Source: an uncultured Bacteroidales bacterium (GTDB lineage: Bacteria > Bacteroidota > Bacteroidia > Bacteroidales > JAADJA01). From it: 64,000 bases of DNA. The notes beneath the pieces were generated by a model. The model searched no databases. It had not been told where the DNA came from and was given only the letters and a program-made list of their open reading frames with translations. Positions within the stretch are counted from its first letter, which is position 1. Every line of letters begins with the position of its first letter. The stretch spans positions 935 through 64,934 of the forward strand of contig CAYLTG010000001.1 of NCBI GenBank assembly GCA_964386225.1. The letters are read 5' to 3'. The position numbers and the translations under genes were made by a program. Below are positions 2,598 to 19,648 of this stretch, piece after piece.

Positions 2598-2603
2598 GTC
2601 AGA

Positions 2604-4043: not shown

Positions 4044-4404
4044 TACCAGTGATTTAGGGTGTTTGAGAAAATGTCAATCAACTGTTCAGGTTTTATTTGA
4101 AGTCTTCAATTTGTCCTTATGCTCCGGTATGTGAAACGGGATGAGGTCTAGCAGGAGAGTTATTTCGAGTGCTTACCCGAAGCCATAGAACATTGTAAAT
4201 GTAAAGAAATTAGCCCATCAAACCAAAAATTACTCTGCCGGTCGTAAGCCTGGGTTGCATTTTGCAGTTTCAGAAAGCAGGGCTTTTGTCTCCTTCATCC
4301 CTCAAAAATTCCCGTTCACCACATTTTTCTTTCCTGCATCATTCTTTCCTGCTTGCTTTGGGCAGAATTTCAGAAATGGATTTTCAACGCATATCAGGAT
4401 TCAC

Positions 4405-5430
4405 ATGCAAAAAATAATTCAATTTTTCACTGTCACATTGATCGGGACGACCTTTCTTATAAGCTCCTGCAAGCACTCCCCCGAAGACAACATCAACCCC
4501 GACGATCCCAATAACCCGCCGCCGGTCGACACCATCGCCTGCGATTCCACCAACGTCACCTACCCCGGTACGGTTTTCCCCATCCTGCAGGCCAGCTGCC
4601 TCTCCTGCCATGGCGGCGCCACTCCGGCAGGGGGACTCGATTTCAACAATTATGACGACGTGGCCTTCGTGGCCCAGACCGGTCAGCTGGTGGGATCCAT
4701 CAACCACCTTGCAGGGTTCAAGCCCATGCCGCAGAACGGGCCTAAGCTTTCCGGGTGCGAGATCGCACTGATCACGAAATGGGTGAACGATACTACCTTC
4801 AACGGCGGGGGTGGTGGCAACAACGGCAACTGCGACCCCGATACGGTTTATTTTCATAATGATATTCTGCCACTTCTCCTTTCGAGCTGCGGCACCACAG
4901 GCTGCCACGATGAAGGTACGGCCCAGGAGGGCATCATCCTCACCAGCTACTTCCACGTGATGCAGTCGGGGGTGGTGAAGGCCTTCGATCCCAACGACAG
5001 CGAAATGTACGAGAAGATCACGGAGGACGACCCCGAAGACCGCATGCCGCCGCCGCCGCGGACACCCCTCAACGCCGACCAGATCAACATGATCTACACC
5101 TGGATCGCACAGGGGGCGCTGGACAACTCATGCGACGCCGGCGACTGCGACACGGTCAACGTCACCTTCTCGGGGACCATCTTCCCGATGATCCAGAACC
5201 GCTGCTACGGATGTCACAGCGGCCCGGAGCCCCAGAGCGGCATCAGCCTGGAGAATTATGCGTCCGTCAGCGCGGCCGCAGCCATCGCCCCGGGCAATCC
5301 CGGCAGCCTCCTGGGCGCCGTGACCGGGGCACAGGGCAACTCTCCGATGCCCAAGAACGGACCGCCGCTGCCCGACTGCAACATCGAGCAGATCAAGAAA
5401 TGGATCGCCGACGGGATGCCTGACAATTGA
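4405..5430 (+). CDS. Lipoprotein with three PSCyt1-like putative c-heme modules
   Basis: I moved the start from the ORF-track TTG 4255 to ATG 4405, which gives MQKIIQFFTVTLIGTTFLISSC (signal plus lipobox). There are three paralogous ~95-aa modules. Motifs: CLSCH at 4597-4611, CGTTGCH at 4888-4908, CYGCH at 5203-5217. The pattern P-I-L...CxxCHG...MP.NGP.L..C...I.KWI resembles the Planctomycete cytochrome C (PSCyt1) domain. Confidence 0.7.
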   Translation: MQKIIQFFTVTLIGTTFLISSCKHSPEDNINPDDPNNPPPVDTIACDSTNVTYPGTVFPILQASCLSCHGGATPAGGLDFNNYDDVAFVAQTGQLVGSINHLAGFKPMPQNGPKLSGCEIALITKWVNDTTFNGGGGGNNGNCDPDTVYFHNDILPLLLSSCGTTGCHDEGTAQEGIILTSYFHVMQSGVVKAFDPNDSEMYEKITEDDPEDRMPPPPRTPLNADQINMIYTWIAQGALDNSCDAGDCDTVNVTFSGTIFPMIQNRCYGCHSGPEPQSGISLENYASVSAAAAIAPGNPGSLLGAVTGAQGNSPMPKNGPPLPDCNIEQIKKWIADGMPDN

Positions 5431-5544
5431 CAATGAGTGAATGCGTAAATGAGTGAATAAGTGGTGAATTTTTACGGACTTTTTAAACAATCGCTTTGAA
5501 TGGGTGTTGACAGCACTGGCAAGTATAATCAAGAATATCAGATC

Positions 5545-5919
5545 ATGATCAGAAAAACAATCAATGCGGCATTGATGGTCCTGGCCCTGGCCGGCCTGCA
5601 GGCGTGCTACTGGGACAACGAGGAAGAGCTTTACCCCGTGGTGGGCGATTGCGACACCACCAACGTCACCTACTCCGGCACGGTGGCGGTGATCCTTGAC
5701 GCCAGCTGCGTTTCCTGCCACAACAGCACCTTCGCGCAGGCCGGGGTGGTGGTGGACAACTACGACGACCTCAAGGTGGTGGTCGACAACGGCCGTTTCT
5801 GGGGGGCCATCAACCATGAGGACGGATATTCACCCATGCCTCAGAACCTCCCCAAACTGCCGGAGTGCGACCTGAAGAAGATAAGGACCTGGATCGATAA
5901 CGGCGCCATGAATGACTGA
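5545..5919 (+). CDS. Lipoprotein with one PSCyt1-like putative c-heme module
   Basis: Start at ATG 5545 (MIRKTINAALMVLALAGLQAC, lipobox). It carries a single module paralogous to those of the upstream gene, with CVSCH at 5707-5721 and ...MPQNLPKLPECDLKKIRTWIDNGA. Confidence 0.7.
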   Translation: MIRKTINAALMVLALAGLQACYWDNEEELYPVVGDCDTTNVTYSGTVAVILDASCVSCHNSTFAQAGVVVDNYDDLKVVVDNGRFWGAINHEDGYSPMPQNLPKLPECDLKKIRTWIDNGAMND

Positions 5920-6029
5920 TACAAATGCTTACCCCGGATCTACTCATATGAAAATTTCCGGCCCCCTGGGCCCAATTACGGGCGACTGAACGAAGTTCAG
6001 GCGACCAAATGACCTAAAAACACATACCT

Positions 6030-6947
6030 ATGAAGCAACTGATTATCCTGCTCACCGCCCTTGCATTCAGCGCGTTGCCTATCCTCGCCCAGGACGACCT
6101 GATGGACCTGCTGAACAGCGAAGAGCAGGCCGTTGATTACACCTATGCCACCTTCAAGACCTCGAGGATCATCAACTCACACTCGGTGGAGCAGCCCGCA
6201 TCAGGCGTCCTGATGTTCCTCATCCAGCACCGGTTCGGGCGGCTGAACACCGGATTCTATGAACTATTCGGGCTCGACCAGGCAACCATCCGGCTGGGCC
6301 TGGAATACGGCGTCACCGACCGGCTTAGCATCGGCGTGGGTCGCAGTTCCTACCAGAAGACCTATGACGGGTTCGTCAAGTACAAGTTGTTGCGGCAGAG
6401 TACGGGTGCCCGGAAAATGCCCGTGACACTCTCGTACTACGGCAGCATGACGCTCAATTCGCTGAAATGGGAAGACCTGGGTGTGGAAGATCGCGACAAC
6501 AATTTCAGCTCCCGCCTGGCCTATACCCACAAGTTGCTGCTGGCGCGCAAGTTCAGCAGCAGCATTTCCCTGCAGCTGATGCCGACCTACACCCACAAGA
6601 ACCTTGTTCCCACGGCCGACGATGCCAACGACATCTTCTCCATGGGCGTCGGCGGAAGGGTGAAGATCACGAACCGGATGTCGGTGAATGCGGAATATTA
6701 CTACACCCCGGAAAGCCAGATCTCCTATGAGTTCACGCAGCCCTTCTCCCTTGGCCTCGACCTGGAAACGGGGGGGCATGTCTTCCAGCTCCACTTCTCC
6801 AATGCCCAGGCCTTCTTCGACAGCGGCTACCTGACCGAGACCTCCGGAAAGTGGGGCGATGGCGACGTCTATTTCGGGTTCAACATCTCACGGGTCTTCA
6901 CGATCAAGAAACCGAAGGTGCCGGAAGGGGAATCCACGGGATATTGA
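6030..6947 (+). CDS. Small outer-membrane beta-barrel protein (family not assigned)
   Basis: 305 aa with signal peptide MKQLIILLTALAFSALPILAQ. The sequence has an alternating amphipathic strand pattern rich in Y/G/S/T. It is the last gene of the CxxCH lipoprotein operon and is followed by a terminator. Confidence 0.65.
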   Translation: MKQLIILLTALAFSALPILAQDDLMDLLNSEEQAVDYTYATFKTSRIINSHSVEQPASGVLMFLIQHRFGRLNTGFYELFGLDQATIRLGLEYGVTDRLSIGVGRSSYQKTYDGFVKYKLLRQSTGARKMPVTLSYYGSMTLNSLKWEDLGVEDRDNNFSSRLAYTHKLLLARKFSSSISLQLMPTYTHKNLVPTADDANDIFSMGVGGRVKITNRMSVNAEYYYTPESQISYEFTQPFSLGLDLETGGHVFQLHFSNAQAFFDSGYLTETSGKWGDGDVYFGFNISRVFTIKKPKVPEGESTGY

Positions 6948-7011
6948 TCCCCCGATGTCAGATTGATCGTCCGCATTTGACGAAATTATCTTTTCTTTGC
7001 AGCAAGAACAA

Positions 7012-7043
7012 GGGGCCCGGCCATGCCGCAGGCCCTTTTTTTT
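7012..7043 (+). terminator. Rho-independent terminator after the CxxCH/beta-barrel operon
   Basis: GGGGCCCGGCCATGCCGCAGGCCC hairpin (GGGCC/GGCCC arms) followed by T8. Confidence 0.6.
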
Positions 7044-7045
7044 GA

Positions 7046-7759
7046 ATGTTATCAACTATCCATATGGAATTGTTCAAGGCAAACGACAAGCTGTTCGACC
7101 TGGTTGATGCCAACCACAACCTGCTGCCCGTGCTGAACCGGTTCGGCATTCGTCCGGGGTTCAAGGACAGGACGGTGGCGGAGGTATGCGCCGAAAAGGA
7201 GATCAACAAGGACTTCTTCCTGGCGCTGGTGAATACTTACAACAACCCTGATTATTTCCCGGAGGAAGAGCTGCTTGGGTTTTCCCCGCTGCTGATCATC
7301 GATTACCTCCGCAAAACGCATGAGTATTACATTGGTTATTTCCTGCCCCGCCTGGAATGGCTGCTCGACAGGATGTCGGGCGATGACGGGGGCGACAACC
7401 GCGACTTGAGAACGATCCGGTCTTTCTATGAGAAATACAGGCAGGAGCTCCTGGCCCATATCCGTGATGAGGAGGAGAATGTATTCCCGGCTGTCGTGGA
7501 CTTCATCCGGAACAGCGCGGACCGGAAACTGGGCAATGCGGCCATTTCCTTTGAAAAGGAACATACCAACGTGGAAATGAAGCTGAGCGACCTCAAGCAC
7601 CTCATCGTCAAATATGTCAGGCCGGGATACGACGACCATGATTTTTATGAGTTCGTGTCGGCCCTCTACCGTTTTGAAAAGGACATCATCGACCATGCCC
7701 GCATCGAGGACAAGATCCTCGTGCCCCGGATCAAAGGGATCACACCCGCTGCCAGATGA
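7046..7759 (+). CDS. Hemerythrin-like domain protein (RIC/ScdA-like architecture)
   Basis: 237 aa. The N-terminal ~60-aa helical domain resembles ScdA_N/DUF1858. The C-terminal part has spaced H/E residues (HEYYIGYF, AHIRDEEENVF, EKEHTNVE, IDHARIEDKIL) as in hemerythrin-like cation-binding four-helix bundles. An alternative start is ATG 7064 (MELFK...). Confidence 0.65.
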   Translation: MLSTIHMELFKANDKLFDLVDANHNLLPVLNRFGIRPGFKDRTVAEVCAEKEINKDFFLALVNTYNNPDYFPEEELLGFSPLLIIDYLRKTHEYYIGYFLPRLEWLLDRMSGDDGGDNRDLRTIRSFYEKYRQELLAHIRDEEENVFPAVVDFIRNSADRKLGNAAISFEKEHTNVEMKLSDLKHLIVKYVRPGYDDHDFYEFVSALYRFEKDIIDHARIEDKILVPRIKGITPAAR

Positions 7760-8352
7760 AAAGGGAGATCTTCATCATACACCCGTCACCCATTGTCAGG
7801 AAAGGGTTGAACGCCGCCCTGCGTGGCTTTTTCAGCCACGACATCACGATGCTGCCGGATGCTTCTGAAATGAAGGCCTACAGGGAGATCAGGAATTCCA
7901 TCGTGATCGTGTTCATCGGTCCTGACCAGGACCGGGGGCACCTCACCCGCCTCCAGGCGAGTAACCGGCTTCACCTGGTGCAGATCACCGGATCGGCCGG
8001 AGAAGGGGAGGTGAACGGCGACAAGGACCCTTTCCTCAGCATCCACGCCCAGGATCATCAGATCCGTGAACTGCTCCACGGGCTTCTGGAAAGGGACTCC
8101 GCCGCTGTTGCCGACCGGCCGCAGGACGACGAACTGACGGTCCGGGAAAAGGAGGTGCTAGCCCTGGTAGCCATGGGCCACTCCAGCAAGGAGATCGCCG
8201 ACAAGCTGTTCATCAGCGTCCATACCGTGATCTCCCACAGGAAGAACATCACCGAGAAGCTGGGCATCAAGTCCATCTCCGGCCTTACCGTGTATGCCAT
8301 CCTCAACCGCGTCATCGACCCCGATACCCTGAATGCCGACCTGCTGATCTGA
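7756..8352 (+). CDS. LuxR/GerE-family transcriptional regulator with degenerate receiver-like N-terminus
   Basis: The C-terminal HTH is LTVREKEVLALVAMGHSSKEIADKLFISVHTVISHRKNITEKLGI. The start overlaps the upstream stop as ATGA (7756-7759). The N-terminal beta1 reads IFIIHPSP rather than an acidic DD pair. Confidence 0.8.
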   Translation: MKREIFIIHPSPIVRKGLNAALRGFFSHDITMLPDASEMKAYREIRNSIVIVFIGPDQDRGHLTRLQASNRLHLVQITGSAGEGEVNGDKDPFLSIHAQDHQIRELLHGLLERDSAAVADRPQDDELTVREKEVLALVAMGHSSKEIADKLFISVHTVISHRKNITEKLGIKSISGLTVYAILNRVIDPDTLNADLLI

Positions 8353-8435
8353 AAAATCCCAACAATTGGGGATTTCCATTCTGAATTAGTCCGGGTAGTT
8401 TTGCTTTGTTAAATGATGAACAAATCAAAACGATC

Positions 8436-9641
8436 ATGAGAACCGCAGCAACAATGGCCATGATCCTGCTGATATCTTTCGCGGGACAGGCACAGAATAC
8501 CGACAGCAGCAATAATGTATACAGGAACACCGCCGACCGGATGATGGTCAACGACAGCCGGCTCACCCTGGGTGGATACGGGGAGGTGCACTACAACCAA
8601 CCGGTGGGGGGTGCGACGCGCAGCCTGGGGACATTGGACGTCCACCGCGTGGTCCTGCTTTTCGGCTATAAATTCAATGCACGCACCCAATTTGTTACCG
8701 AGATCGAGTTCGAACATGTCAGTGAAGTGTATATTGAGCAGGCCTTCCTGCAGTACAAGATCACCAACGGGATCAGTTTCAGGGGCGGGTTGCTGCTGAT
8801 CCCCATGGGCATCATCAACGAATACCATGAGCCCACCACCTTTCAGGGCGTGGAACGGCCCCTGGTGGACAAGGTCATCGCACCCACCACCTGGCGCGAG
8901 ATCGGGCTGGGATTCAACGGCAACATCTTCCCCGCCTATCTGAAGTACCAGGTCTACCTTGTGAACGGGTTTGCGGGATACGACGGCGAGGCCAACCTGA
9001 ACGGCAGGAACGGACTGCGGGGAGGTCGCCAGAAAGGGGCCGAATCTTTTATCAGCGCGCCCAATCTCACGGGTAAGTTGGAATTCTACGGGGTCCGCGG
9101 CCTGAACGTCGGACTTTCGGGGTACTTCGGGAATACCCAGAGCAACATGTACAAGGGGATCGAAGTGAACGATGCCGAAGGAAAGACCAGGGCCGATTCT
9201 TCCGTGGTGGGCGTTTCCATGGTCGGGATCGATGCCAGGTATTCGATGAAAGGTTTCGAATTGAGGGGGCAGTACTATCACGTCGGCCTGTCGAACACCG
9301 GTCCCTACAACCAATTCACAGCCTCGGAAGAAGGCCCCAACGACCTGGGCAGCCGGATGTCGGGATATTACCTGGAGGCAGGCTACAACGTGTTCAGGCT
9401 GCTCCGTGGCGTGGGCACTGAATTGGTCCCCTTCGTCCGGATTGAGCAATACGATACACATGCCGCAGTGGAGGAGGGCACCACCCGGAATGACGGATAC
9501 AACAACACGATCATCACCACCGGCCTCAGCTGGCGGATGGCGCCGGGGGCTGTCCTCAAGGCTGACATGCAGTTCGTGAAACCCCGGTCGGCCGGCAATT
9601 ACAGCCAGGTATTCAGCGCAGGCCTCGGTTTCATGTTTTGA
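8436..9641 (+). CDS. Outer-membrane porin-like beta-barrel
   Basis: Start at ATG 8436 (MRTAATMAMILLISFAGQAQ signal); the ORF-track start is TTG 8406. It has an amphipathic strand pattern, and the C-terminus GLGFMF ends in an aromatic residue, typical of OM barrels. Confidence 0.7.
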   Translation: MRTAATMAMILLISFAGQAQNTDSSNNVYRNTADRMMVNDSRLTLGGYGEVHYNQPVGGATRSLGTLDVHRVVLLFGYKFNARTQFVTEIEFEHVSEVYIEQAFLQYKITNGISFRGGLLLIPMGIINEYHEPTTFQGVERPLVDKVIAPTTWREIGLGFNGNIFPAYLKYQVYLVNGFAGYDGEANLNGRNGLRGGRQKGAESFISAPNLTGKLEFYGVRGLNVGLSGYFGNTQSNMYKGIEVNDAEGKTRADSSVVGVSMVGIDARYSMKGFELRGQYYHVGLSNTGPYNQFTASEEGPNDLGSRMSGYYLEAGYNVFRLLRGVGTELVPFVRIEQYDTHAAVEEGTTRNDGYNNTIITTGLSWRMAPGAVLKADMQFVKPRSAGNYSQVFSAGLGFMF

Positions 9642-9653
9642 TACGCTAAAGCT

Positions 9654-10265
9654 ATGAACAGGATTGTTTCACTTCTTTTGGTATTGGCCTGGTCGACCTC
9701 GGTACCCGGCCAGCCCGGAATCGACTATGGCCACAAACGCTTGTTCAAGGCCATCGAGCGGGAATGGGGACTCACGGATCCAGCCTTGGAAGAGCAGGCG
9801 GTAGCCGATACTATTCCCCTGGCCGAACCGGTCCAGGGGAAGTTTTTCCGGATCCAGGAAAATGAATACGTAAGCAATGACCATTATATTTTCGTGGGGA
9901 GGGTGAACAGCTGCCGTGCCGGTGGCTGTTCCGTTTCCCTCGACGAGGAATTGTATGGGAATTCGGAGTATTTCGATTATTTCATCCTCTTCGGCCCGGG
10001 CCCCGCGGTGCAGGATGTTCAGGTCTTCAACTACCAGGCATCCTATGGCCAGGAGGTGTCGGCACGCGGTTGGCTGAGGCAATTCCAGGGGTACGACGGT
10101 AAATCCTACCTCCAGGTCGGAAAGGACATCGATGCCATCTCCGGGGCCACCATTTCGGTGTATGCCATTACCCAGGATGTCATCCAGAAAACAAGGCTCC
10201 TCTGCGAAATGACGTGCCCCGGGTGTGCAAAAAAAATCGCCGCTTCCAGCGGAAACGGCGACTGA
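9654..10265 (+). CDS. Secreted FMN-binding-domain protein
   Basis: Signal peptide MNRIVSLLLVLAWSTSVPGQP. The motif DAISGATIS (10131-10157) matches the FMN_bind [ST]GA[TS] flavinylation motif of NqrC/RnfG-type domains. It starts 12 nt after the porin gene. Confidence 0.7.
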   Translation: MNRIVSLLLVLAWSTSVPGQPGIDYGHKRLFKAIEREWGLTDPALEEQAVADTIPLAEPVQGKFFRIQENEYVSNDHYIFVGRVNSCRAGGCSVSLDEELYGNSEYFDYFILFGPGPAVQDVQVFNYQASYGQEVSARGWLRQFQGYDGKSYLQVGKDIDAISGATISVYAITQDVIQKTRLLCEMTCPGCAKKIAASSGNGD

Positions 10266-10280
10266 TATCCGGGGTTCAGC

Positions 10281-10484
10281 TTACTTTTTTTTCGTGGTGC
10301 TCAATCCGAAGGGCAGATAAAGCGGGCAGAAGCTGACCAGGCTTGTGAGCAGGAATACGATGGCCAGGATCAGGAGGATGAGTCCCAGCGTTCCTGTGAT
10401 CACGTTCGTGAAATAGAGGACTGCGATGACCACAGCCAGGATGATGCGTACGATCCGGTCAGTGGATCCCATGTTTGCTTTCAT
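10281..10484 (-). CDS. DUF2892 (YgaP-like transmembrane domain) small membrane protein
   Basis: 67 aa. GSTDRIVRIILAVVI...two TM helices...FCPLY matches the characteristic DUF2892 pattern. Confidence 0.8.
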   Translation of the reverse strand: MKANMGSTDRIVRIILAVVIAVLYFTNVITGTLGLILLILAIVFLLTSLVSFCPLYLPFGLSTTKKK

Positions 10485-10546
10485 AATGAGGTATGATTTA
10501 GTTAATGAATAATTTTGACTCGTGATTTTCTACCCGAAGATAGCAA

Positions 10547-11104
10547 TTATTTCTTGAACTCTTCCAGCGCGACTTCAACAGTCACTTCGATCTCTTCGGC
10601 GATGTTATTGACCACCGTTTTGGGGATCTTGATGTCATGATCGGCGGGTTTGACAATAAATTTGCAATTGCCTTTCACCGCCCCGTCGGTCACGGTGAAA
10701 GTGCCGGACTCCTTGACCTCCCGGTCCACACCATGGATCGTCAGGATCCCTTCCACGATGGCCCGGTATTCTCCGGAAGTTCCGAAATCGATCTGGTCGA
10801 GGTTCGTCACTTTGCCTTTGAAGGTTGCATTGGGGAACTTCTCCGACTCCACGTAGTTCTCGTTGAAATGCTCCTGCATGAGGGCTTTTTCGAACTCGAA
10901 CGAACGCATGAGGACCTTGAAGACGAAATCGCCGGATTCCGAATCCAGGGCGCTGTTCACCTGGCGATTATGAGCTTCGATGGTCTCGATGGGGGTTTCG
11001 GAGTAGAACTTGATATACCCGTTCTTTGTGATGTACTTCTGCGAGAAGCCGGCCAAAAAGAACAGGAGCAGGGCTGCGGTTAGCATTGTTTGTTTCATTT
11101 CCAT
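10547..11104 (-). CDS. YceI-family (polyisoprenoid-binding lipocalin-like) periplasmic protein
   Basis: 185 aa with a signal peptide. The YceI-like core is ...IKFYSETPIETIEA...EHFNENYVESEKFPNATFKG...LTIHGV.... It is a paralog of the gene at 17213-17785. Confidence 0.85.
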   Translation of the reverse strand: MEMKQTMLTAALLLFFLAGFSQKYITKNGYIKFYSETPIETIEAHNRQVNSALDSESGDFVFKVLMRSFEFEKALMQEHFNENYVESEKFPNATFKGKVTNLDQIDFGTSGEYRAIVEGILTIHGVDREVKESGTFTVTDGAVKGNCKFIVKPADHDIKIPKTVVNNIAEEIEVTVEVALEEFKK

Positions 11105-11123
11105 CAGTTTTTTTGGTTAAGGG

Positions 11124-11154
11124 CCGGGAAGGCGGAGATCCCCCGCCTTCCCGG
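11124..11154 (-). other. Perfect 12-bp GC-rich hairpin between the T9SS gene and yceI-like gene
   Basis: CCGGGAAGGCGG (11124-11135) and CCGCCTTCCCGG (11143-11154) flank a 7-nt loop. No U-tract follows on the transcribed strand, so it may be an intra-operon RNA structure or weak terminator. Confidence 0.4.
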
Positions 11155-11159
11155 GTTGC

Positions 11160-12953
11160 CTATAATTTAATGATCGTTTTCGAAATTACCAGCCCGTTGT
11201 CGAGTTTCAGTGAGAGGTAATAGATCCCTGGTATGGCGTCACTCATGTCCACGCTGGCATTTTGCGTTCCGCCCCGCACAGTGAAATTACTGACCATCCT
11301 GCCGGTTGAAGAGTAAAGGCTGGCCTCGGTCACGCGCAGGTCATCCAGTTCGGCCCGCAGGGTGAATTTGTCGGTCACCGGGTTGGGGTACACATGCACC
11401 TGGCTTGCCAGGATGTTCTCCCGGATGCCGGTCAGTGGCCACTGGATGTCCGTGAAATTGGTGTTATGGGTGAAATCCAGCTCGCTGTCGCCGGCCACGC
11501 CGTTCAGTTCAAGCCTCCAGGCATGGTCAGCGGGGGGCGGGTCGTACACGCCGTTGCCGTTATGATCGGCATAGAAGTCCACGAAGTAATCCTCACCCAG
11601 TTCCAGCCCGATGGCAAGGGCGTCATAATCAACGAGCACGATGCTGTCGAGCCGCATCCTGCCGGCCTCCTGCATGGTAGCCTGGTTCACCAGCCGCAGT
11701 TCGAAGAGCTGGCCAAGGTGCGGGGTCATCCCCATGGCATGGAGCGTGAACCGGTACTCCCAGCCGATGTCGGTGAAGTTGGTATTGTGAATGAACTCGT
11801 CGTCCTCATCGCCCTCCACATCGGTGAGCTCCAGCCTCCAGGCATGGTCGGCAGGGGGCGCATCGTACACGCCGTTGCCGTTATGATCGGCCCAGAAATC
11901 CACATAATAGGTTTCCCCGGTGCTGATGAATGGCATATGCACGTCGAACTCCGCCGAGGGGATCGCGTCCACCTTTGCGCGGCCGGCTTCTTTCATGGTG
12001 GCCATGTCCACGAGGCGCACCTCTAATTTTTGCCCGATGTGCGGGGTCATGCCGCTGAACTCCAGCGTGTACATGTGCTTGAAGTTGATCTCCGAGAAGT
12101 TGAGGTTATGCTGGAAATCCACGGCGGAAAATCCCATGAAGTCGTTCACGGTGAGCCTCCAGGCATGGTCGGTGGGGATGCCGTCGTACCATCCGTTGTC
12201 ATTGTGGTCGGCGTAGAAATCGATCCAGTAGCTCTTTCCGTCCTCGGTGTTGGAAAAGGAAATGTCGAAGTCGGGGCCCGGCACCTCATCCAAAGCGAGG
12301 CGTTCCACCTCCGTGAGGTTTTCCTTGTCGATGAGCCTGGCTTCCATCAGCTGGCCCACGTGCGGGGTCATGCCGGTCAGGTTGACGGTGATCCCGGTCT
12401 GTACGCCGGAGGATTCGGCCACCGGAAGGGTGGAGGTGTAGATGACGTCCCCCTGGTTGTTGCCGTTCCCGTTGGCGGCGTTGAAGGCGGCATAGAAGGT
12501 GACCTCGCCGGTGCCTGCTGCGGGGGCGGTCCAGTCGAACGACCAGGATTTGGAATCGCCCGTGGGGGTGGTGCCTGCGTTCTTGTGCGTGATGGCGTTG
12601 TTGCTGTTGATCAGCATGGTCTCGGTCGCATTGGTGACCACCAGGGTGCCGACCTTGCTGGCGCCCGCATCCTCCGAGGTCAGTTCGAACCCGAATTTCC
12701 CGACTCCGGGATGCGTACCCGTGGCGGTGATGGTATAGGTCTGACCCGGCTCATAGCCGTCGGCAGGGATGTCGGAGGTGATCCAGCCCGCCTGCGCCGT
12801 GGCTGTTCCGCTATGACACTGGGTGCAGGTGGTGCCGCCGTCGCCGGGGCTGCCGGTCTTGCCGCCCGGTGAGCCGGAGGAATACATCAATTCGGAGGTC
12901 AGCAGGAAAAACAGGCCCGCCACAGTAAAGAGAAGGTAAATTGCTTTTTTCAT
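11160..12953 (-). CDS. T9SS-sorted surface protein: N-terminal CxxCH domain plus three ~105-aa repeats
   Basis: 597 aa with a signal peptide. GGTTCTQCHSG carries the CxxCH at 12813-12827. Three repeats follow, each with GMTPH[VIL]GQ ... ADHN[GD]NG[VW]YD..P[AT]DHAWRL. The T9SS CTD is VYPNPVTDKFTL...GIYYLSLKL...IKL. Confidence 0.8.
   Translation of the reverse strand: MKKAIYLLFTVAGLFFLLTSELMYSSGSPGGKTGSPGDGGTTCTQCHSGTATAQAGWITSDIPADGYEPGQTYTITATGTHPGVGKFGFELTSEDAGASKVGTLVVTNATETMLINSNNAITHKNAGTTPTGDSKSWSFDWTAPAAGTGEVTFYAAFNAANGNGNNQGDVIYTSTLPVAESSGVQTGITVNLTGMTPHVGQLMEARLIDKENLTEVERLALDEVPGPDFDISFSNTEDGKSYWIDFYADHNDNGWYDGIPTDHAWRLTVNDFMGFSAVDFQHNLNFSEINFKHMYTLEFSGMTPHIGQKLEVRLVDMATMKEAGRAKVDAIPSAEFDVHMPFISTGETYYVDFWADHNGNGVYDAPPADHAWRLELTDVEGDEDDEFIHNTNFTDIGWEYRFTLHAMGMTPHLGQLFELRLVNQATMQEAGRMRLDSIVLVDYDALAIGLELGEDYFVDFYADHNGNGVYDPPPADHAWRLELNGVAGDSELDFTHNTNFTDIQWPLTGIRENILASQVHVYPNPVTDKFTLRAELDDLRVTEASLYSSTGRMVSNFTVRGGTQNASVDMSDAIPGIYYLSLKLDNGLVISKTIIKL
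11433..12392 (-). repeat. Three tandem intragenic coding repeats (~315 nt each)
   Basis: Protein repeats span roughly aa 188-294, 295-400 and 401-507. Repeats 2 and 3 share an identical 29-nt stretch, TCGTACACGCCGTTGCCGTTATGATCGGC (11863-11891 and 11542-11570). Confidence 0.8.
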
Positions 12954-12972
12954 ATCAGTAGAATTTTAGTTG

Positions 12973-13410
12973 TTATTCATTGACGATCGAACATTTCTCC
13001 AGGATCACATCCGTACCATTGAACCCTGTGCAATAACCCTTGAGGGTGGCGCTCGCATCCTTTAAAAGGGCGCTGGCCGCCCGGCTGTGGTTGTCGAGCA
13101 TGGTCAGCCGGATCCCTTCGTCCCCGAACATCCCTTCGCTCAACGCAAAGACCACGATGGTGAGGGAGTCGGGCGTTTCCACGGCTGTTACCCGGCCGGT
13201 CACCTGGAGCACTTTCCCGTTGTAGGTGTTTTCTGCCTCCTTCCGGTTGCCGGTGTAGTGGGAGAACAGCTCCTCGGCCGTGATGCGGTACTCCGCCTCC
13301 GCCTTTTCATAGTCGGTGTGTGGCTTGTTGTACACGAAAACATATCCCAGAATGCCTGCTGCGATCCCGAGGAATACCAGTACTGCGATGATCTTGATCC
13401 ACTTGTTCAT
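12973..13410 (-). CDS. Membrane-anchored OB-fold protein (tRNA_anti-like family pattern)
   Basis: MNKWIKIIAVLVFLGIAAGILGYVFVYNKP is an N-terminal TM anchor. It is followed by ...AEELFSHYTGNRKEAENTYNGKVLQVTGRV.... An alternative upstream ATG lies at 13431. Confidence 0.7.
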   Translation of the reverse strand: MNKWIKIIAVLVFLGIAAGILGYVFVYNKPHTDYEKAEAEYRITAEELFSHYTGNRKEAENTYNGKVLQVTGRVTAVETPDSLTIVVFALSEGMFGDEGIRLTMLDNHSRAASALLKDASATLKGYCTGFNGTDVILEKCSIVNE

Positions 13411-13473
13411 GGCATGGTCGATTTGTTCCATGCAAAGGAACGTGAATGCGACAGGGTGCGGAAATAAAACTCC

Positions 13474-13506
13474 GTGAACGGGAATTATGGAATGGTGAAC
13501 GGGAAT
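13474..13506 (-). promoter_or_regulatory. Candidate LytTR operator: ATTCCCGTTCAC x2, 21-bp period
   Basis: Exact 12-mer copies lie at 13495-13506 and 13474-13485 (read on the minus strand) with a 9-bp spacer. They sit between the LytTR regulator gene and the downstream gene. I confirmed the sequence against the ORF-track translation ...YSRSPFHNSRSR.... Confidence 0.55.
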
Positions 13507-13524
13507 ATGTGAGCAATTGCCGTG

Positions 13525-14283
13525 TCAGCCGGCCTGTCCGTCAAGCCATTTCTTGAAGCTTCCCGAGCGCTCTGTGCTGGCTACGGTCTCGAAATCGCAG
13601 GGCGGATCCAGCTCGACCTTCACCCGCGATTTGGACCAGGCGTACATCTCCCTGATCGCGCGGATGTTGATGATGATCTGCCTGTTGATGCGGTAGTAAC
13701 GCTCCGGGTCAAGCATGCCCTCCAGACGGTCGAGGCTGTGGTCCGATGGGTATTCCATGCCGTCGAAGGTCTTGAAGAAATTGTTTCCCTCCAGGGTATA
13801 GAAATAGGCGATCTCATCCGTCGGTACCACCTTGATCTTCTGTCCGTAGCGCACCATGAACCGCTTCTGGTAGCTGCGGGGCGTCAGGACCCCCGCCAGG
13901 GCCCCGTAATCGGGCTTCCTGTCCTGCTGCGAGATCCTTTTCAGTTTATCCAGGCTGGCCTTCAACTGGTCGCGCGACACCGGCTTCAGCAGGTAGTCGA
14001 TGCTGTTCACCCGGAAGGCATCGATGGCGTACTGGTCGTATGCCGTGGTGAAGATCACGGGGATATCCATGTGGACGGCCCTGTATATCTCGAAGCAGCT
14101 GCCATCGGCCAGGTGGATGTCCTGGAAGATCAGGTCGGGGTGGGGGTGGGAGGTCAGCCAGGCGATGCTGGATTCGACGCTGTCAAGGATCTCCACCACC
14201 TCGATGCCGGGATCCAGTTCGCCGATCAGTTTTTGCAGCCGCTGGGCCGTGGCGTGTTCGTCTTCGATGATGAGCGCTTTCAT
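13525..14283 (-). CDS. LytTR-family two-component response regulator
   Basis: The receiver is MKALIIEDE...DLIFQDIHLADG.... The C-terminal LytTR DNA-binding domain is ...IKVVPTDEIAYFYTLEGNNFF...YYRINRQIIINI.... I prefer ATG 14283 over the ORF-track TTG 14292. Confidence 0.9.
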   Translation of the reverse strand: MKALIIEDEHATAQRLQKLIGELDPGIEVVEILDSVESSIAWLTSHPHPDLIFQDIHLADGSCFEIYRAVHMDIPVIFTTAYDQYAIDAFRVNSIDYLLKPVSRDQLKASLDKLKRISQQDRKPDYGALAGVLTPRSYQKRFMVRYGQKIKVVPTDEIAYFYTLEGNNFFKTFDGMEYPSDHSLDRLEGMLDPERYYRINRQIIINIRAIREMYAWSKSRVKVELDPPCDFETVASTERSGSFKKWLDGQAG

Positions 14284-14288
14284 GAAAT

Positions 14289-17216
14289 TCAAGGGATAAA
14301 AGGAAGTCCGACGGTGAAGGCATGTTCCGTTTTGATGACCATAACTTCTTCATCGGTGAGCAGTTTGTACCTGCTGATGATGTTGTTGATGCCGATCCCG
14401 GTGGAAGGTGTATCCTGCAATTTTTCCTGGATGTTGTTCTCCACAAAAATACGATTTTCGCCGGGTTTTGAAAAGATTTTGATCCTTAAGGGTTTGCCCC
14501 TGGATGCCACATTGTGCTTGATCGCATTCTCGATGAGCAGCTGCAAGGTGAGGGGCGGGATCTTCGTCCCCCTGAAGGCGGAGGGTTCCTCCATTTCAAC
14601 CACCAGGTTGCTGCCATACCTCTTTTTCTGCAGGTTGATGTAGTTGCCGGCGATCTCGTACTCACGGTCCAGGCTCACCAGGTCCTGGTCCTTGTATTCC
14701 AGGATGATCCTGAAGAGCATGGAAAGTTCTTCCACGTAGTTGACAGCAGCCTTTGTGTCATCTTCGATGAGTGCGATGAGGGTGCTGAAGCTGTTGAACA
14801 GGAAGTGGGGGTTGATCTGGCTCTTCAGGTTCTCGAACTGGAACCTGATCTTTTCCTGGATCAATTCCTCCTTTCGCCTAACCTGCCGGATCCTGGCCGT
14901 AAGGATCATGGCGGTCAGCCCGCCTGCCGCCAGCACCAGCAGGATGTAAAACCAGATCGAGGAATGGAATGGCTTGCGGATGGTGAAGGTGTACGCTTCT
15001 TCCCCGGCAGCGCTGAAATTTCCGTAAAGGCCCGACCTGACGCGGAAAGTGTATTCACCCGGCCGCAGGTCAGAATAGATCACCTGGTTGTTGCGTGTCC
15101 GTATCCAGCCCAGGTCATGTCCGTCAAGCTTCACCTGGTATTCCACCTGGTCGGGTTGCTGGTACCAGAAACCCGAATAGTTGAACGAGAGGTGGTTCTC
15201 GTTGTGGTTAAACTGCTTGCTGCCCGAATGGTTGAACGGCTCCAGGAACAGGGCGACCCCTTCCAGTTTGGTCCGCGGCTGTTCCCACAACCCTTTTTCC
15301 AGGGGCCGGATCCGGATAATGCCTTTGGCCGTCCCTATCCATAGTGCATGGTGCGAATCGCGGGCGAGGGTGTTGAGGTCGGGGTTGATGAAGGCGATCC
15401 CCGCATTTTCCTCGAAATGCCGGATGGCCCCGGTGGATATGTTCATCACATCGATGCCGTTCTCGTGGGCCATCACCAGTTCGCCCTTGCTGCTGAGTAT
15501 CCCGCTGATGGTCACTTCCCGCCGTCCGGCCTCGCGGGAAATCCGGGAATAGCTTGTGCCGTCGTATTTATGGAGTCCTTCTCCGGCTATGTTGAGCCAG
15601 GTGTTGCCGGCGTCATCGCGAGCGACCGAATATACCACCTTGTCGGCCATTTCACCCCCCGGGTCCAGGTGGAGGAATTCCCCGTCCCGGTAAAGATGCA
15701 CGCCGCTGCCGTCGGTCGCGAAATAGGGTGTTCCGTCGTCCGGGAGGAATACCTGGTAGATGTAATTGTTCACGAGCCCTTCCTCCGATCCGAAATTCTG
15801 AAAAGTTGGCACGTGGTCCGGTTCTTCCATGTTTTTATCCATGATGCACCGTGATGCGCCGCCCAGTGTGCCGAACCAGATCTCCTGCCTGTTCCCGGTA
15901 ATGGAGAGCACATTGCCGTTCACCAGCCCGTCGCGCTCGGTGATGACTACCTGCCGGCCGGTCCCGGGGTCCATCCTGACCAGCCCGCTGCCGAAGGTCC
16001 CCACCCAGATGAAGCCGAGGTAGTCGCGGTAGATGCTCATCACCTTCTGCTGGTCCAGGTCGATGATCAGCGGGTGATGTACCGCGGCTGCCCCGGGCTG
16101 CCCCGGGTCATAGGAGTAGATGCCCCGGTCATCGGCGAACCACAGCTGGTCGTCGCTGTCGACGGTGAGGGCATGGATGTTGTTCAGCTCCATCCCGCCG
16201 ATCGACTGGAAGAACTCGATCCTGTTCCCGAACGAAAGATACAATTCGTTGCCGGAGAGCAGCCAGATGTTGCCCTCCTGGTCCCTAAGCATGGACTTGA
16301 TCCTTCCCATGGTTTGTTCCCCGACATCCCGGTAATGGGTCACGGTGCCGGTTTCGGGGCTGTATTCCATGATGCCCCTGTCCGATGTGGCGATCCAAAT
16401 CCTGTCCTCCAGGATCACCATGTCGCGCACCGCACCGAACTGCCATTCCCGCAGGTTTTCCGGCACGTGGAAGGTGCCGCTGCGTTGGTCATACCTGCAG
16501 ATGCCCCGGTCATACATCCCGATCCAGATGCTGCCGCTGTCACCGGCGGCGAGGCATTGCACGATAAAATCGGGCAGGCCCTCGTCGATGCTCAGCTTCG
16601 TAACTTTCCATGCGCCACCCTCGGATCCCGCCACATTGATCCCGTTGTCGGTGCCCATCCAGATCCTGTTGCCGGGACCCGTGACGATGGAGTAGATGTA
16701 ATTGTCGGAAAGGCCTGACTCGCTGTTCATCTGGACGATGGCCGTATCCCGGCTGACGAATGCGCCGCTGCCGTAGGTGGCCATCCACACGGTCCCCGGC
16801 TCTCCCTCGACGAAGCCCGTGATCCGGCTGACATTCTCCCTGCCGGCTGACAGCACGGTGTCGAAAACCTCGAATCCGTCATACGTCAGGACGCCGCCAT
16901 TTTCAAAACCGATCCAGAGGTTGCCGGAATGGTCGGTGAACAGGGCGGTTGGTCCCTCGTCCCTGAAGTTGCCGGGGAGCACCACCGGTGTGAAGGATAG
17001 TCCGTCGAAGGTGTACAACCCTGCGGCCGTCCCCAGCCAGATCATGCCGTCGTGATCCTGGTGTATGCAGTTCAGGTTGCCCTCCCCGACTTTCGTGTCG
17101 ATGGGGACAGTCCGGAACCAGGCCTGGGCCCGCGCGTCAGGTGCCGCCAGCAGCACCGGAAGGATCAGGGTCGCAACCGCGGCAATCAGGGTCAACAGGA
17201 AGGGGCGCCCGGTCAT
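14289..17216 (-). CDS. Sensor histidine kinase with periplasmic two-component-regulator propeller/Y_Y_Y domain and LytS/YehU-type kinase core
   Basis: 975 aa with a signal or TM segment. Many propeller repeats are present (G.IW[IL]GT..G[LI]). The Y_Y_Y-like segment is YQVKLDGHDLGWIRT...PGEYTFRVRS and the TM segment is IWFYILLVLAAGGLTAMILTA. The His_kinase box is QINPHFLFNSFSTLIALI, followed by a HATPase region. Confidence 0.9.
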   Translation of the reverse strand: MTGRPFLLTLIAAVATLILPVLLAAPDARAQAWFRTVPIDTKVGEGNLNCIHQDHDGMIWLGTAAGLYTFDGLSFTPVVLPGNFRDEGPTALFTDHSGNLWIGFENGGVLTYDGFEVFDTVLSAGRENVSRITGFVEGEPGTVWMATYGSGAFVSRDTAIVQMNSESGLSDNYIYSIVTGPGNRIWMGTDNGINVAGSEGGAWKVTKLSIDEGLPDFIVQCLAAGDSGSIWIGMYDRGICRYDQRSGTFHVPENLREWQFGAVRDMVILEDRIWIATSDRGIMEYSPETGTVTHYRDVGEQTMGRIKSMLRDQEGNIWLLSGNELYLSFGNRIEFFQSIGGMELNNIHALTVDSDDQLWFADDRGIYSYDPGQPGAAAVHHPLIIDLDQQKVMSIYRDYLGFIWVGTFGSGLVRMDPGTGRQVVITERDGLVNGNVLSITGNRQEIWFGTLGGASRCIMDKNMEEPDHVPTFQNFGSEEGLVNNYIYQVFLPDDGTPYFATDGSGVHLYRDGEFLHLDPGGEMADKVVYSVARDDAGNTWLNIAGEGLHKYDGTSYSRISREAGRREVTISGILSSKGELVMAHENGIDVMNISTGAIRHFEENAGIAFINPDLNTLARDSHHALWIGTAKGIIRIRPLEKGLWEQPRTKLEGVALFLEPFNHSGSKQFNHNENHLSFNYSGFWYQQPDQVEYQVKLDGHDLGWIRTRNNQVIYSDLRPGEYTFRVRSGLYGNFSAAGEEAYTFTIRKPFHSSIWFYILLVLAAGGLTAMILTARIRQVRRKEELIQEKIRFQFENLKSQINPHFLFNSFSTLIALIEDDTKAAVNYVEELSMLFRIILEYKDQDLVSLDREYEIAGNYINLQKKRYGSNLVVEMEEPSAFRGTKIPPLTLQLLIENAIKHNVASRGKPLRIKIFSKPGENRIFVENNIQEKLQDTPSTGIGINNIISRYKLLTDEEVMVIKTEHAFTVGLPFIP

Positions 17217-17785
17217 GGGGTGGATGGTGTTTTGGTCAGTGTCACTTCAATGCTCACGGCCACCTCTTCGGCGATCTTCTGGTAGACGAGCTTCGGAATG
17301 GTGATGTTGTGGTCGTCGAGGCTGACCATGAACCTGCTGGTGGCCGTGAACTGGTCCGGCCCGATGTCGAGCATGCATTTGATGATCCTTTCTTTTTTGA
17401 CACCGTGGATGTCAAGGATGCCCTTGGCCCGGACCTCGAGCCGACCCGGGACGCTGAGGTCGACCTTTTCGATGATCCTCCCGCTGAAAGAGGCGTTGGG
17501 ATATTTCTCCACCTCGATGTAGTTCTCGTAAAAATGTTCCTGCTGCAAGGGTGAATTGAAACCGGTAAGGGTTTGCGTCCCCACCTGGAAGGCAAAGGTG
17601 CCCTTGGAGGGATCGAACAGGCCCCTGAGGGCATCCGACTCTGCTGCGATGAGTTCCAGCGGGGCGTCGGAAACGAAGGAAACATGCCCGTTCTCGGCCC
17701 TGTATAGTACGGCGGACCCCTCATCCTGTCCCAACAGGCCGAGGGCAAGGCAAAGGAACGACAAGCTGATGATCATCCTGTTCAC
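17213..17785 (-). CDS. YceI-family periplasmic protein, translationally coupled to the sensor kinase
   Basis: 190 aa with a GTG start and a signal peptide. The YceI-like core is EHFYENYIEVEKYPNASFSG...ILDIHGV. Its stop overlaps the kinase ATG as ATGA (17213-17216). Confidence 0.85.
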   Translation of the reverse strand: MNRMIISLSFLCLALGLLGQDEGSAVLYRAENGHVSFVSDAPLELIAAESDALRGLFDPSKGTFAFQVGTQTLTGFNSPLQQEHFYENYIEVEKYPNASFSGRIIEKVDLSVPGRLEVRAKGILDIHGVKKERIIKCMLDIGPDQFTATSRFMVSLDDHNITIPKLVYQKIAEEVAVSIEVTLTKTPSTP

Positions 17786-17823
17786 GGTGGCAGGTTTTAT
17801 TTCTAAACAAACTAAAAATACAA

Positions 17824-17831
17824 TAGTTTTG
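17824..17831 (+). promoter_or_regulatory. Bacteroidota-type -7 box TAGTTTTG upstream of the phoD-like gene
   Basis: It matches TAnnTTTG and lies ~50 nt upstream of ATG 17882. This supports the shorter start for the phosphatase gene. Confidence 0.4.
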
Positions 17832-17881
17832 TGAGATACCGCAGCCTTTTGAAAAGATCAGGGCATGCAAACATCACATCT

Positions 17882-19216: not shown

Positions 19217-19222
19217 GAAGGG

Positions 19223-19648
19223 TCAGCGGGCGTCGTAGTCAATGGTCTTGAGCAGTTCGCCGTCCTGGTCCCAGAAGGACCATGTCCCGGTCCTTTCATC
19301 GTCCTTCAGGTGCCCTTCATAGTACTTCTGGCCGTTCTCGTAATATACCGTTTTCAGCCCGTTCTCCCTGCCGTTCCGGTATTCCCCGGTGCTCCACAAC
19401 TGACCGTTGGCATGCCAGGCCTTCCACGTCCCTTCCCGCTCCCCGTTTTTGTAGGCGCCTTCAATGTAGAGGGTCCCGTCGCGGTAGAGCTGTTTTTCAC
19501 GGACGAGAACGGTCTTCTCCTTGTCCCTGTAGAACTTCACTATCTTGGGCGAGCCGTCGGGGTAGCTCTCCTCGACGAATTCATAACTTTTCGGCGAGCA
19601 GGCCAGGACAAACAGGAGCGGTATGATCCAGGGGAGAAACTTTTTCAT
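19223..19648 (-). CDS. MORN-repeat (YwqK-like) lipoprotein
   Basis: Lipobox MKKFLPWIIPLLFVLACS. It has repeated G.Y.NG.[RK][ET]G.W motifs (EGAYKNGEREGTWKAWH, GEYRNGRENG, EGHLKDDERTGTW). Confidence 0.8.
   Translation of the reverse strand: MKKFLPWIIPLLFVLACSPKSYEFVEESYPDGSPKIVKFYRDKEKTVLVREKQLYRDGTLYIEGAYKNGEREGTWKAWHANGQLWSTGEYRNGRENGLKTVYYENGQKYYEGHLKDDERTGTWSFWDQDGELLKTIDYDAR

Follow-up and report, generated by a model that had tools for sequence, protein, structure and literature searches.

What holds together a run of genes that nearly all encode envelope proteins, and what could their products do as a group? This question is raised by a stretch of about 13.6 kb (positions 4131-17785) in the DNA of an uncultured Bacteroidales bacterium, which we analyzed within a window of 64,000 nucleotides (contig CAYLTG010000001.1). 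The 14 genes of this stretch, here called G3 to G16, include genes for c-type cytochromes, a small outer-membrane (OM) beta-barrel, YceI lipocalins and an FMN_bind protein, and a first reading made from the DNA letters (the sequence-only reading) had proposed that they all form one regulon. The best explanation for the region as a whole is that it is a composite of two independently regulated envelope modules, a reading to which we assign a probability of roughly 0.6. Module A (G3-G5 and G10-G16) would act in envelope redox homeostasis or antioxidant protection. Module B (G6-G9: hemerythrin, LuxR regulator, porin-like protein and FMN_bind protein) is a cassette inserted, in the lineage of the window, between the halves of module A. 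The notion of one regulon is not supported, because module B has a different phyletic distribution and its own palindromic operator and promoter.

Gene content and conservation of module A

The following genes of module A, and one terminator, were located in the window by open reading frame (ORF) listing and hidden Markov model (HMM) searches, which recovered nearly every gene item of the sequence-only reading.

G3, 4405..5430, plus strand: lipoprotein (lipobox ISSC) with three c-type cytochrome modules (PSCyt1 1e-18, Cytochrome_CBB3 2.5e-10)
G4, 5545..5919, plus strand: small mono-haem cytochrome c lipoprotein (lipobox LQAC), CVSCH ... SPMP, PSCyt1/Cytochrome_CBB3-type HMM match
G5, 6030..6947, plus strand: DUF5777 OM beta-barrel (E 1.5e-97)
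Terminator, 10235..10263, minus strand: 13-pair hairpin with a T-run behind it, likely to end unit G13-G10
G10, 10281..10484, minus strand: YgaP-like two-helix membrane protein of 67 aa (DUF2892, 2.2e-22)
G11, 10547..11104, minus strand: secreted YceI lipocalin with signal peptide (PF04264 6e-14, above the cut-off)
G12, 11160..12953, minus strand: type IX secretion system (T9SS) cargo with a choice-of-anchor V/Reeler-fold domain, three 107-aa repeats and a type A C-terminal domain (CTD), HMM matches
G13, 12973..13431, minus strand: membrane-anchored OB-fold protein (tRNA_anti-like, 4.1e-18) with N-terminal membrane helix
G14, 13525..14292, minus strand: response regulator with receiver and LytTR DNA-binding domain (Response_reg and LytTR matches)
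G15, 14289..17216, minus strand: sensor kinase with periplasmic Reg_prop propeller, Y_Y_Y domain, membrane helix and LytS-type His_kinase PF06580 (HMM)
G16, 17213..17785, minus strand: second secreted YceI lipocalin with signal peptide (PF04264 3.8e-10, above the cut-off), first gene of G16-G15-G14

Judged by gene spacing, these genes form three transcription units: G3-G4-G5 on the plus strand, and G13-G12-G11-G10 and G16-G15-G14 on the minus strand. Gaps within G13-G12-G11-G10 measure 19-62 nt, and the genes of G16-G15-G14 overlap by 4 nt, as G14 and G15 do. The terminator at 10235-10263 was the only convincing hairpin in a scan in which terminator-like sites were not enriched (19 versus 13.9 expected), and a sigma-70 promoter scan was uninformative (4 sites versus 6.8 expected). 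By domain content, the stretch holds a LytTR regulon, a T9SS type A cargo, a member of the choice-of-anchor V family and an FMN_bind protein. The claim of "only envelope-targeted products" needs correction for G6, G7 and G14, which are cytoplasmic.

The haem motifs of G3 (CLSCH, CGTTGCH and CYGCH) lie in modules of about 100 aa. Where the sequence-only reading had counted four CxxCH modules in the two lipoproteins, the haem modules are indeed present, but CGTTGCH is a CX4CH variant. Every haem motif of G3 and G4 has a (P)MP methionine downstream, and CxxCH is kept in 90 of the 100 ORFs that are homologous to the cytochromes. G3 and G4 are accordingly predicted from their motifs to be class I-like c-type cytochromes with His/Met ligands and attached haem.

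A metagenome scan with DUF5777 as anchor yielded 80 further loci at 47-63% identity, 39 of which are at least 9 kb long. Clustering placed cytochrome c genes in 57 of the 80 loci, YceI genes in 65 and OB-fold genes in 52; with the exception of one YceI and one OB-fold ORF, all were encoded on the DUF5777 strand, usually in the order cytochrome c, cytochrome c, OB-fold, YceI, DUF5777. Of these 39 longer loci, 36 have small cytochromes, 34 have YceI, 23 the OB-fold protein, 7 the kinase and 6 the LytTR regulator, and none has homologues of G6, G7, G8, G9 or G12. Kinase and regulator genes stand directly upstream of the operon in 7-8 of the DUF5777-anchored loci. Since these loci show this gene set and order, we interpret the window as a split five-gene operon together with its two-component system. 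The ancestral operon would have consisted of genes for a pair of small cytochrome c lipoproteins, an OB-fold protein anchored in the membrane, a YceI lipocalin and the DUF5777 barrel. In the window it is broken into G3-G4-G5 on the plus strand and G13-G12-G11-G10 on the minus strand, and G16-G15-G14 comprises a second YceI gene and the two-component system. Module A represents a split and expanded version, particular to this lineage, of an operon that is widespread in Bacteroidota and that was found in metagenomes from many habitats, surface-ocean assemblies included.

Several related loci show how the genes have been rearranged. The entire arrangement of the window is kept at 45-79% amino-acid identity in L002 and L026, and also in L082, which belongs to the same metagenome-assembled genome as L026 and carries a DoxX_2 gene in addition. 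In L084 (72% identity) two cytochrome c genes and DUF5777 are followed on the opposite strand by DUF2892, YceI, OB-fold, LytTR regulator, kinase and YceI, and L085 (62% identity) has the same gene set on one strand; both lack G6-G9 and G12. The order YceI-kinase-regulator is common to L084, L085 and L169, and in L169 it continues, as it does in the window, with OB-fold, choice-of-anchor V and YceI. G10 stays adjacent to YceI in L002, L026, L084 and L085. G12 is an accessory partner in module A. Its position is the same in L026 and L169, and the earlier assignment of the T9SS-sorted CxxCH protein to the cluster is upheld by this neighbourhood and by a natural domain fusion described below. The T9SS protein that follows DUF5777 in L084 was considered as another choice-of-anchor V protein and rejected, since only its CTD matches.

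Some further genes were observed beside these clusters. The redox-stress neighbours DoxX_2, AhpC/Redoxin and a WCGWC thioredoxin-like gene are weak hints. In L169, at 15334-16825, a T9SS-CTD protein with faint Pfam hits to multihaem cytochromes (an MtrC/MtrF domain, paired CXXCH) is encoded 6 kb from the YceI, kinase, LytTR, OB-fold, choice-of-anchor V, YceI cluster. Directly upstream of the cluster in the window, positions 480-4043 (minus strand) encode two more T9SS-CTD proteins of 705 and 479 aa with delta-60/SBBP beta-propeller repeats, which are not conserved beside the cluster in any related locus.

Module B and its operator

Between the two halves of module A, the window contains the following elements.

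G6, 7046..7759, plus strand: cytoplasmic hemerythrin-domain protein, distantly RIC-like (Pfam; TIGR03652 76 bits, cut-off 204.7)
G7, 7756..8352, plus strand: helix-turn-helix regulator of the LuxR/GerE type, with an N-terminus that is receiver-like but degenerate; its first 4 nt overlap the end of G6
Operator and promoter of the porin-FMN_bind unit, 8356..8403, plus strand: palindrome ATCCCAACAATTGGGGAT at 8356-8373, then TAGTTTTG at 8396-8403
G8, 8436..9641, plus strand: protein of about 400 aa with signal peptide and porin-like sequence character, constantly paired with G9
G9, 9654..10265, plus strand: secreted FMN_bind protein with signal peptide (PF04205 22.2 bits against a cut-off of 22, a marginal match)

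A profile built from 29 homologues of G9 retrieved 80 genome loci, mostly from Marinilabiliales-like Bacteroidales. The porin-like gene directly precedes FMN_bind in 74 of these 80 loci, and hemerythrin and LuxR genes are present in 16 and 13 of them, respectively, the LuxR gene next to the porin-FMN_bind pair. Module A genes accompany FMN_bind in L002 and L026 only. Glycerate kinase and adenosine deaminase, which recur downstream of FMN_bind, were rejected as partners because they are housekeeping genes. The neighbourhood comparison thus bears out co-conservation for module A, but not for module B with module A outside L002 and L026. What stands of the proposed undescribed Bacteroidota envelope system is a conserved cluster of extracytoplasmic haem and YceI proteins with an OM barrel, which does not form one unit with G6-G9.

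The operator gives a second line of evidence for this separation. The palindrome has the form TCCCAA-N4-TTGGGA, and TAGTTTTG matches the TAnnTTTG -7 box, a Bacteroidota promoter element. Allowing at most 2 mismatches in 12 positions, we found the palindrome in the 260 bp that precede the porin gene at 48 of 69 loci (about 1 expected; background 64 hits in 1.14 Mb). In most cases it lies 44-57 nt from the gene start, and at this threshold it occurs once in the window. A conserved motif upstream of the hemerythrin gene was not found. The adjacent LuxR protein G7 is the candidate that probably binds the palindrome, and G6 is likely to be an O2/NO/iron-responsive partner of module B. We regard module B as independent of module A because none of the 39 large DUF5777 loci carries G6-G9, because its neighbours vary, and because it has its own operator and promoter.

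The assignments within module B differ in how far they go. For G6 the hemerythrin domain alone is secure; its identification as the RIC (YtfE/ScdA) equivalog was rejected, as its score of 76 bits falls short of the cut-off in TIGR03652. G8 gave no Pfam, NCBIfam or PDB sequence match. It had been called a porin; no Pfam or NCBIfam porin model matches it, and what remains is a barrel call from sequence character. We also rejected G8 as a member of DUF3570, a flavinylated family of barrel size (PMC8238504), in view of the missing Pfam match and SGAT motif. Its start is most likely the ATG at 8436, because the alternative TTG at 8406 lies only 3 nt after the TAnnTTTG box. PDB sequence searches returned nothing usable for G8, G9, G11, G12 and G13.

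G9 carries the RnfG/NqrC-type flavinylation motif DAISGATIS (Thr166), which is invariant across the 29 homologues, and in a profile search the FMN_bind profile matches RnfG weakly around its flavinylated Thr. A second invariant motif of the family, GRVNSCRAGGCS (CX4C; residues 84-95, window 9903-9938), may be a redox-active disulfide or a metal site near the flavin; we know of nothing comparable in RnfG or NqrC. The last 10 codons of G9 (KIAASSGNGD; window 10235-10265) overlap the minus-strand terminator hairpin, and this tail is common to the two closest relatives only. With its signal peptide, its FMN_bind domain and an [S/T]GA[S/T] motif that aligns with the flavinylated Thr, G9 resembles the ApbE-flavinylated proteins RnfG, NqrC and PplA (PMC8238504). 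It differs from them in that it stands alone, is paired with a porin-like protein and has the invariant CX4C, and in that neither a membrane electron-transfer partner nor ApbE was found nearby. The main text of the flavinylation survey mentions no porin-associated class (PMC8238504).

A LytTR-type box on both halves of the operon

Two paired elements were located in module A.

LytTR-type box A, 4288..4319, minus strand: pair of 11-mers at 21-bp spacing, 86 nt ahead of the ATG of G3
LytTR-type box B, 13474..13505, plus strand: pair of exact GTGAACGGGAA copies at 21-bp spacing in the gap that separates the end of G14 from the start of G13, 43 nt ahead of G13

The regulators of LytTR regulons such as those of AgrCA, LytSR and BtsSR target imperfect direct repeats with a periodicity of about 21 bp just upstream of promoters. 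The window shows these features: G14 combines a receiver with a LytTR domain, G15 has a LytS-type His_kinase domain, and direct repeats with the consensus TTCCCGTTCA lie at 21-bp spacing upstream of both operon halves. Box A consists of an exact GTGAACGGGAA at 4309-4319 and a degenerate copy at 4288-4298 (minus-strand reading), and relative to the downstream gene both box A and box B read TTCCCGTTCAC. At no more than one mismatch, GTGAACGGGAA occurs 9 times in the window against 1.4 expected. The splitting of a single box-controlled operon would explain the presence of the box on both halves. The differences from the known regulons are that G15 is a large periplasmic double-propeller/Y_Y_Y kinase typical of Bacteroidota, and that the box and its targets are new.

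The repeat that the sequence-only reading had taken to link the whole stretch is real, but its paired copies precede only two transcription units, those starting with G3 and G13; no paired boxes were found before G6, G8 or G16 in the window. In L002, L026 and L084, paired boxes (at most 4-5 mismatches in 22 positions) likewise occur at the two orthologous promoters only, in the same orientation as in the window. Of the 14 paired hits in 779 kb of metagenome loci, 9 (8 sites in 7 loci) are found on the operon strand at less than 250 bp in front of a core gene, where the background rate predicts about 0.1. L107 has TTCCCGTTCAG-N10-TTCCCGTTCGG between the regulator gene and the first cytochrome gene, and L097 has a variant of the box, TTCCGGGTTCA, between the regulator gene and the cytochrome c gene. 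This conserved direct repeat ties the propeller kinase and the LytTR regulator to the module A cluster, as had been proposed, and from their position and spacing the boxes are the putative target of the adjacent two-component system.

Single copies were seen at two other places. An exact GTGAACGGGAA at 19719-19729 (minus strand) lies within an amidohydrolase ORF, 71 nt upstream of a MORN-repeat gene (19223-19648), without a partner repeat and in the orientation opposite to boxes A and B; the MORN gene remains beside the cluster in L002 and L084. A variant with a one-base insertion, GTGAAACGGGA, is present at 4131-4141, also without a partner, 88 nt upstream of the T9SS gene at 2604-4043 (minus strand), and position 4131 is where the sequence-only reading had let the stretch begin.

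What module A may do

YceI lipocalins bind ubiquinone-8 or octaprenyl compounds, and in Burkholderia a YceI lipocalin and the adjacent cytochrome b561 limit lipid peroxidation in the envelope (PMC9113575). This linkage of a secreted YceI lipocalin (BcnA) with a cytochrome (LcoA) is conserved across wide phylogenetic distances in Burkholderia and other Proteobacteria, among them E. coli (yceJ-yceI), and YceI-b561 gene fusions exist in alpha-proteobacteria (PMC9113575). Because module A likewise combines YceI with a cytochrome, we favour a role in envelope redox homeostasis, and by analogy module A may be the functional counterpart of the BcnA-LcoA system. The two are alike in their extracytoplasmic compartment, and in both a quinone or isoprenoid ligand is a plausible redox mediator. 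They differ in their parts: the secreted YceI proteins are there (G11 and G16), but the membrane di-haem b561 is replaced by periplasmic c-type lipoproteins with no sequence relation to it, and HMM searches detected no cytochrome b561 domain in any gene from 480 to 19648. Module A further adds the DUF5777 barrel, the anchored OB-fold protein and a dedicated LytTR two-component system. We propose that electrons would pass between the periplasmic His/Met-type cytochromes c and a lipophilic isoprenoid carrier (a quinone) bound to YceI, and/or between these cytochromes and an OM partner consisting of the DUF5777 barrel and the haem-Reeler protein G12. The propeller kinase would sense an envelope signal and switch module A on, and the outcome would be envelope redox homeostasis or antioxidant protection. 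Elsewhere, a paper on iron-limitation RNA-seq in Riemerella merely lists a YceI gene without context.

The barrel belongs to a family of 2305 clusters at 50% identity, and a literature search returned no mention of either DUF5777 or choice-of-anchor V. Its alignment has a mean conservation of 70%, which is unusually high for a barrel, and His67 (QHRFG) and His250 (TGGHVFQ) are invariant, also in a paralogue of 38% identity. An AF2 model (pLDDT 68) has 12 strands; its closest PDB folds are FapF, NanC, OmpG and the COG4313 channel, and TodX is also among the best structural neighbours. The paralogue is encoded in an apparent operon of Saccharicrinis sp. FJH54 (L022:15959-18559, minus strand), where its neighbours are a T9SS-CTD copper protein of the plastocyanin/azurin type (447 aa) on one side and a small Rieske protein on the other, with a Crp-family regulator adjoining and the porin-FMN_bind pair of that genome 6 kb away. 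P0361 is a 615-aa protein of two tandem DUF5777 barrels.

G12 matches the choice-of-anchor V model NF041895 with 118.9 bits (cut-off 42) and the T9SS CTD model TIGR04183 with 38.9 bits (cut-off 23), and has a weak HMM match to Reeler. Its N-terminal domain contains the motif CTQCH, and C43, C46, H47, H81 and H123 are invariant among 25 homologues; a model of this domain (pLDDT 84) matches the F-spondin Reeler domain (E 7e-9). Eukaryotic FRRS1/SDR2 are Reeler-DOMON-cytochrome b561 proteins, which G12 resembles in fold and in its putative association with haem-based electron transfer. Unlike these and F-spondin, G12 is bacterial and T9SS-sorted, and the Reeler domain itself bears the CxxCH, in an extension at its N-terminus. 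Typical members of the family are about 270 aa long and consist of this domain and a T9SS CTD; they lack the three tandem 321-nt (107-aa) repeats with the motif GMTPHxGQ...DFYADHNGNGVYD found in G12 at 11445-12224. In P0382 (456 aa), a choice-of-anchor V domain (98 bits; BLASTP 1e-27 to G12) is fused to a DUF5777 barrel. This fusion was found in two independent assemblies from different samples (L170:959-2329 and L171:540-1910), directly downstream of two small ORFs, of which the second has a weak Cytochrome_CBB3 hit and the first no Pfam hit. In two other genomes the choice-of-anchor V gene occurs in unrelated contexts. The fusion, the gene order of L169 and the cupredoxin/Rieske context of L022, taken together, tie DUF5777 to extracytoplasmic redox proteins.

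Three other explanations were weighed against envelope redox homeostasis. According to the oldest of them, all 14 genes are one regulon for extracellular electron transfer of the Geobacter/Shewanella type, in which both barrels, FMN_bind, YceI, the cytochromes and the T9SS haem protein act in series. The largely extracytoplasmic location of the products and the intact arrangement of L002 and L026 agree with this, several contigs seem to carry relatives of both FMN_bind and DUF5777 (which is suggestive only), and the T9SS-tagged, faintly multihaem protein is encoded nearby in L169. Shewanella MtrCAB and Geobacter Pcc/OmbB-OmaB-OmcB are deca- and octa-haem wires inside barrels of 20-26 strands. 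Module A shares with them the adjacency of c-type cytochrome and OM barrel genes and a possible surface haem protein, but it has separate mono-haem modules with methionine motifs (three haem motifs in G3, one in G4 and one in G12) in place of a multihaem wire, and a barrel of about 12 strands. The number of haems and the size of the barrel exclude an Mtr/Pcc type for module A, and with it falls the analogy drawn in the sequence-only reading. A single regulon is also at odds with the two distinct cis-elements and regulators, with the absence of G6-G9 from all 39 large DUF5777 loci and the near absence of module A from the FMN_bind loci. Moreover, the wide distribution of the operon, surface ocean included, is an ill fit to a specialized metal-respiring trait. 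We therefore hold this explanation to be very unlikely. A literature search found nothing on T9SS combined with multihaem extracellular electron transfer in Bacteroidota.

The main and more novel rival is that module A is an electron conduit across the OM, a split and sometimes fused analogue of the cytochrome-porin Cyc2. Electrons would pass from the mono-haem cytochromes through or along the DUF5777 barrel to a surface haem-Reeler domain, delivered by T9SS or, when fused, tethered to the barrel. Cyc2 is the fused cytochrome-porin of Fe(II) oxidizers; compared by architecture only, it shares with module A a single CxxCH domain and a modest barrel, and a fused form exists in P0382. It differs in that the haem domain here has a Reeler fold, the barrel is DUF5777, the genes in the window are separate and there is no link to iron oxidizers; the Pfam/NCBIfam hits of the window genes included no Cyc2-like family, though no search aimed at Cyc2 was made. 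A conduit would account for the P0382 fusion downstream of two small ORFs, at least the second of which is cytochrome-like, for the invariant CxxCH and two further histidines of the choice-of-anchor V domain, for the two invariant histidines of the barrel, and for the T9SS cupredoxin and Rieske protein that flank the paralogue. It would also fit the place of G12 within a LytTR-box unit in the window and at the equivalent position in L026 and L169. On the other hand, the haem-Reeler gene is missing from all 39 large DUF5777 loci and so cannot be an obligatory part, an N-terminal domain on an even-stranded barrel would normally face the periplasm and not the surface, a 12-strand barrel leaves little space for a cofactor or polypeptide, and no haem or metal site could be verified in the barrel model. 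That DUF5777, the paired cytochromes and the CxxCH-Reeler protein form an unrecognized electron route across or to the OM, widespread in Bacteroidota, with YceI supplying quinone and the LytTR system switching it on, is therefore a rather unlikely proposal. A mainly non-redox function of module A is unlikely: here isoprenoids, quinones or lipids would be taken up, exported or trafficked via the small barrel, with YceI as carrier and the CxxCH proteins in accessory or sensory roles. Propeller kinases of the G15 type in Bacteroidota sense periplasmic ligands, which would suit such a system, and the best structural neighbours of DUF5777 include the hydrophobic or special-substrate channels COG4313, TodX and FapF. 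YceI proteins moreover bind isoprenoids and other hydrophobic ligands (PMC9113575). Yet no neighbours of the barrel are more constant than the two cytochrome genes (36 of 39 loci), the other contexts of DUF5777 also contain redox proteins, and the cluster has no conserved transporter, TonB-dependent or lipid-metabolism genes.

Some observations weigh against the two-module composite and its redox role as well. An inner-membrane electron donor, cytochrome b561, ApbE and CcsBA were not found in the window; for ApbE this was a partial check, in which nine ORFs of ApbE size (288-363 aa) and one of 408 aa from the rest of the window were negative. Between G5 and G6-G9 there are only weak terminator-like hairpins, so that read-through from the G3 promoter into G6-G9 is possible, and on evidence that is suggestive only, the composite arrangement appears to persist across a whole clade, in which the modules may be functionally tied. 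With the consensus used, no paired box was found in L085 and L169, nor in L170; the box may have drifted in these loci, or the genes may be regulated differently. Finally, the DUF5777 model is of moderate confidence, and the two invariant histidines are not reliably placed in it.

The analysis shows that DUF5777 is part of a conserved operon that also encodes c-type cytochromes, an OB-fold protein and a lipocalin of the YceI family. Since this operon has an identifiable regulator and DNA box, its "hypothetical" genes become a testable system. The division into two regulons corrects the annotation of the locus and bears on its engineering, and it defines a second small system, a porin-flavoprotein pair with a conserved operator across Marinilabiliales-like genomes. 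If module A does serve envelope redox protection, the idea of YceI and a cytochrome as antioxidant partners would extend from Proteobacteria to Bacteroidota, with different parts. If it should instead export electrons, a phylum abundant in the gut, the ocean and soil would turn out to have a new route to its cell surface, and T9SS would gain its first role in the display of a haem protein.

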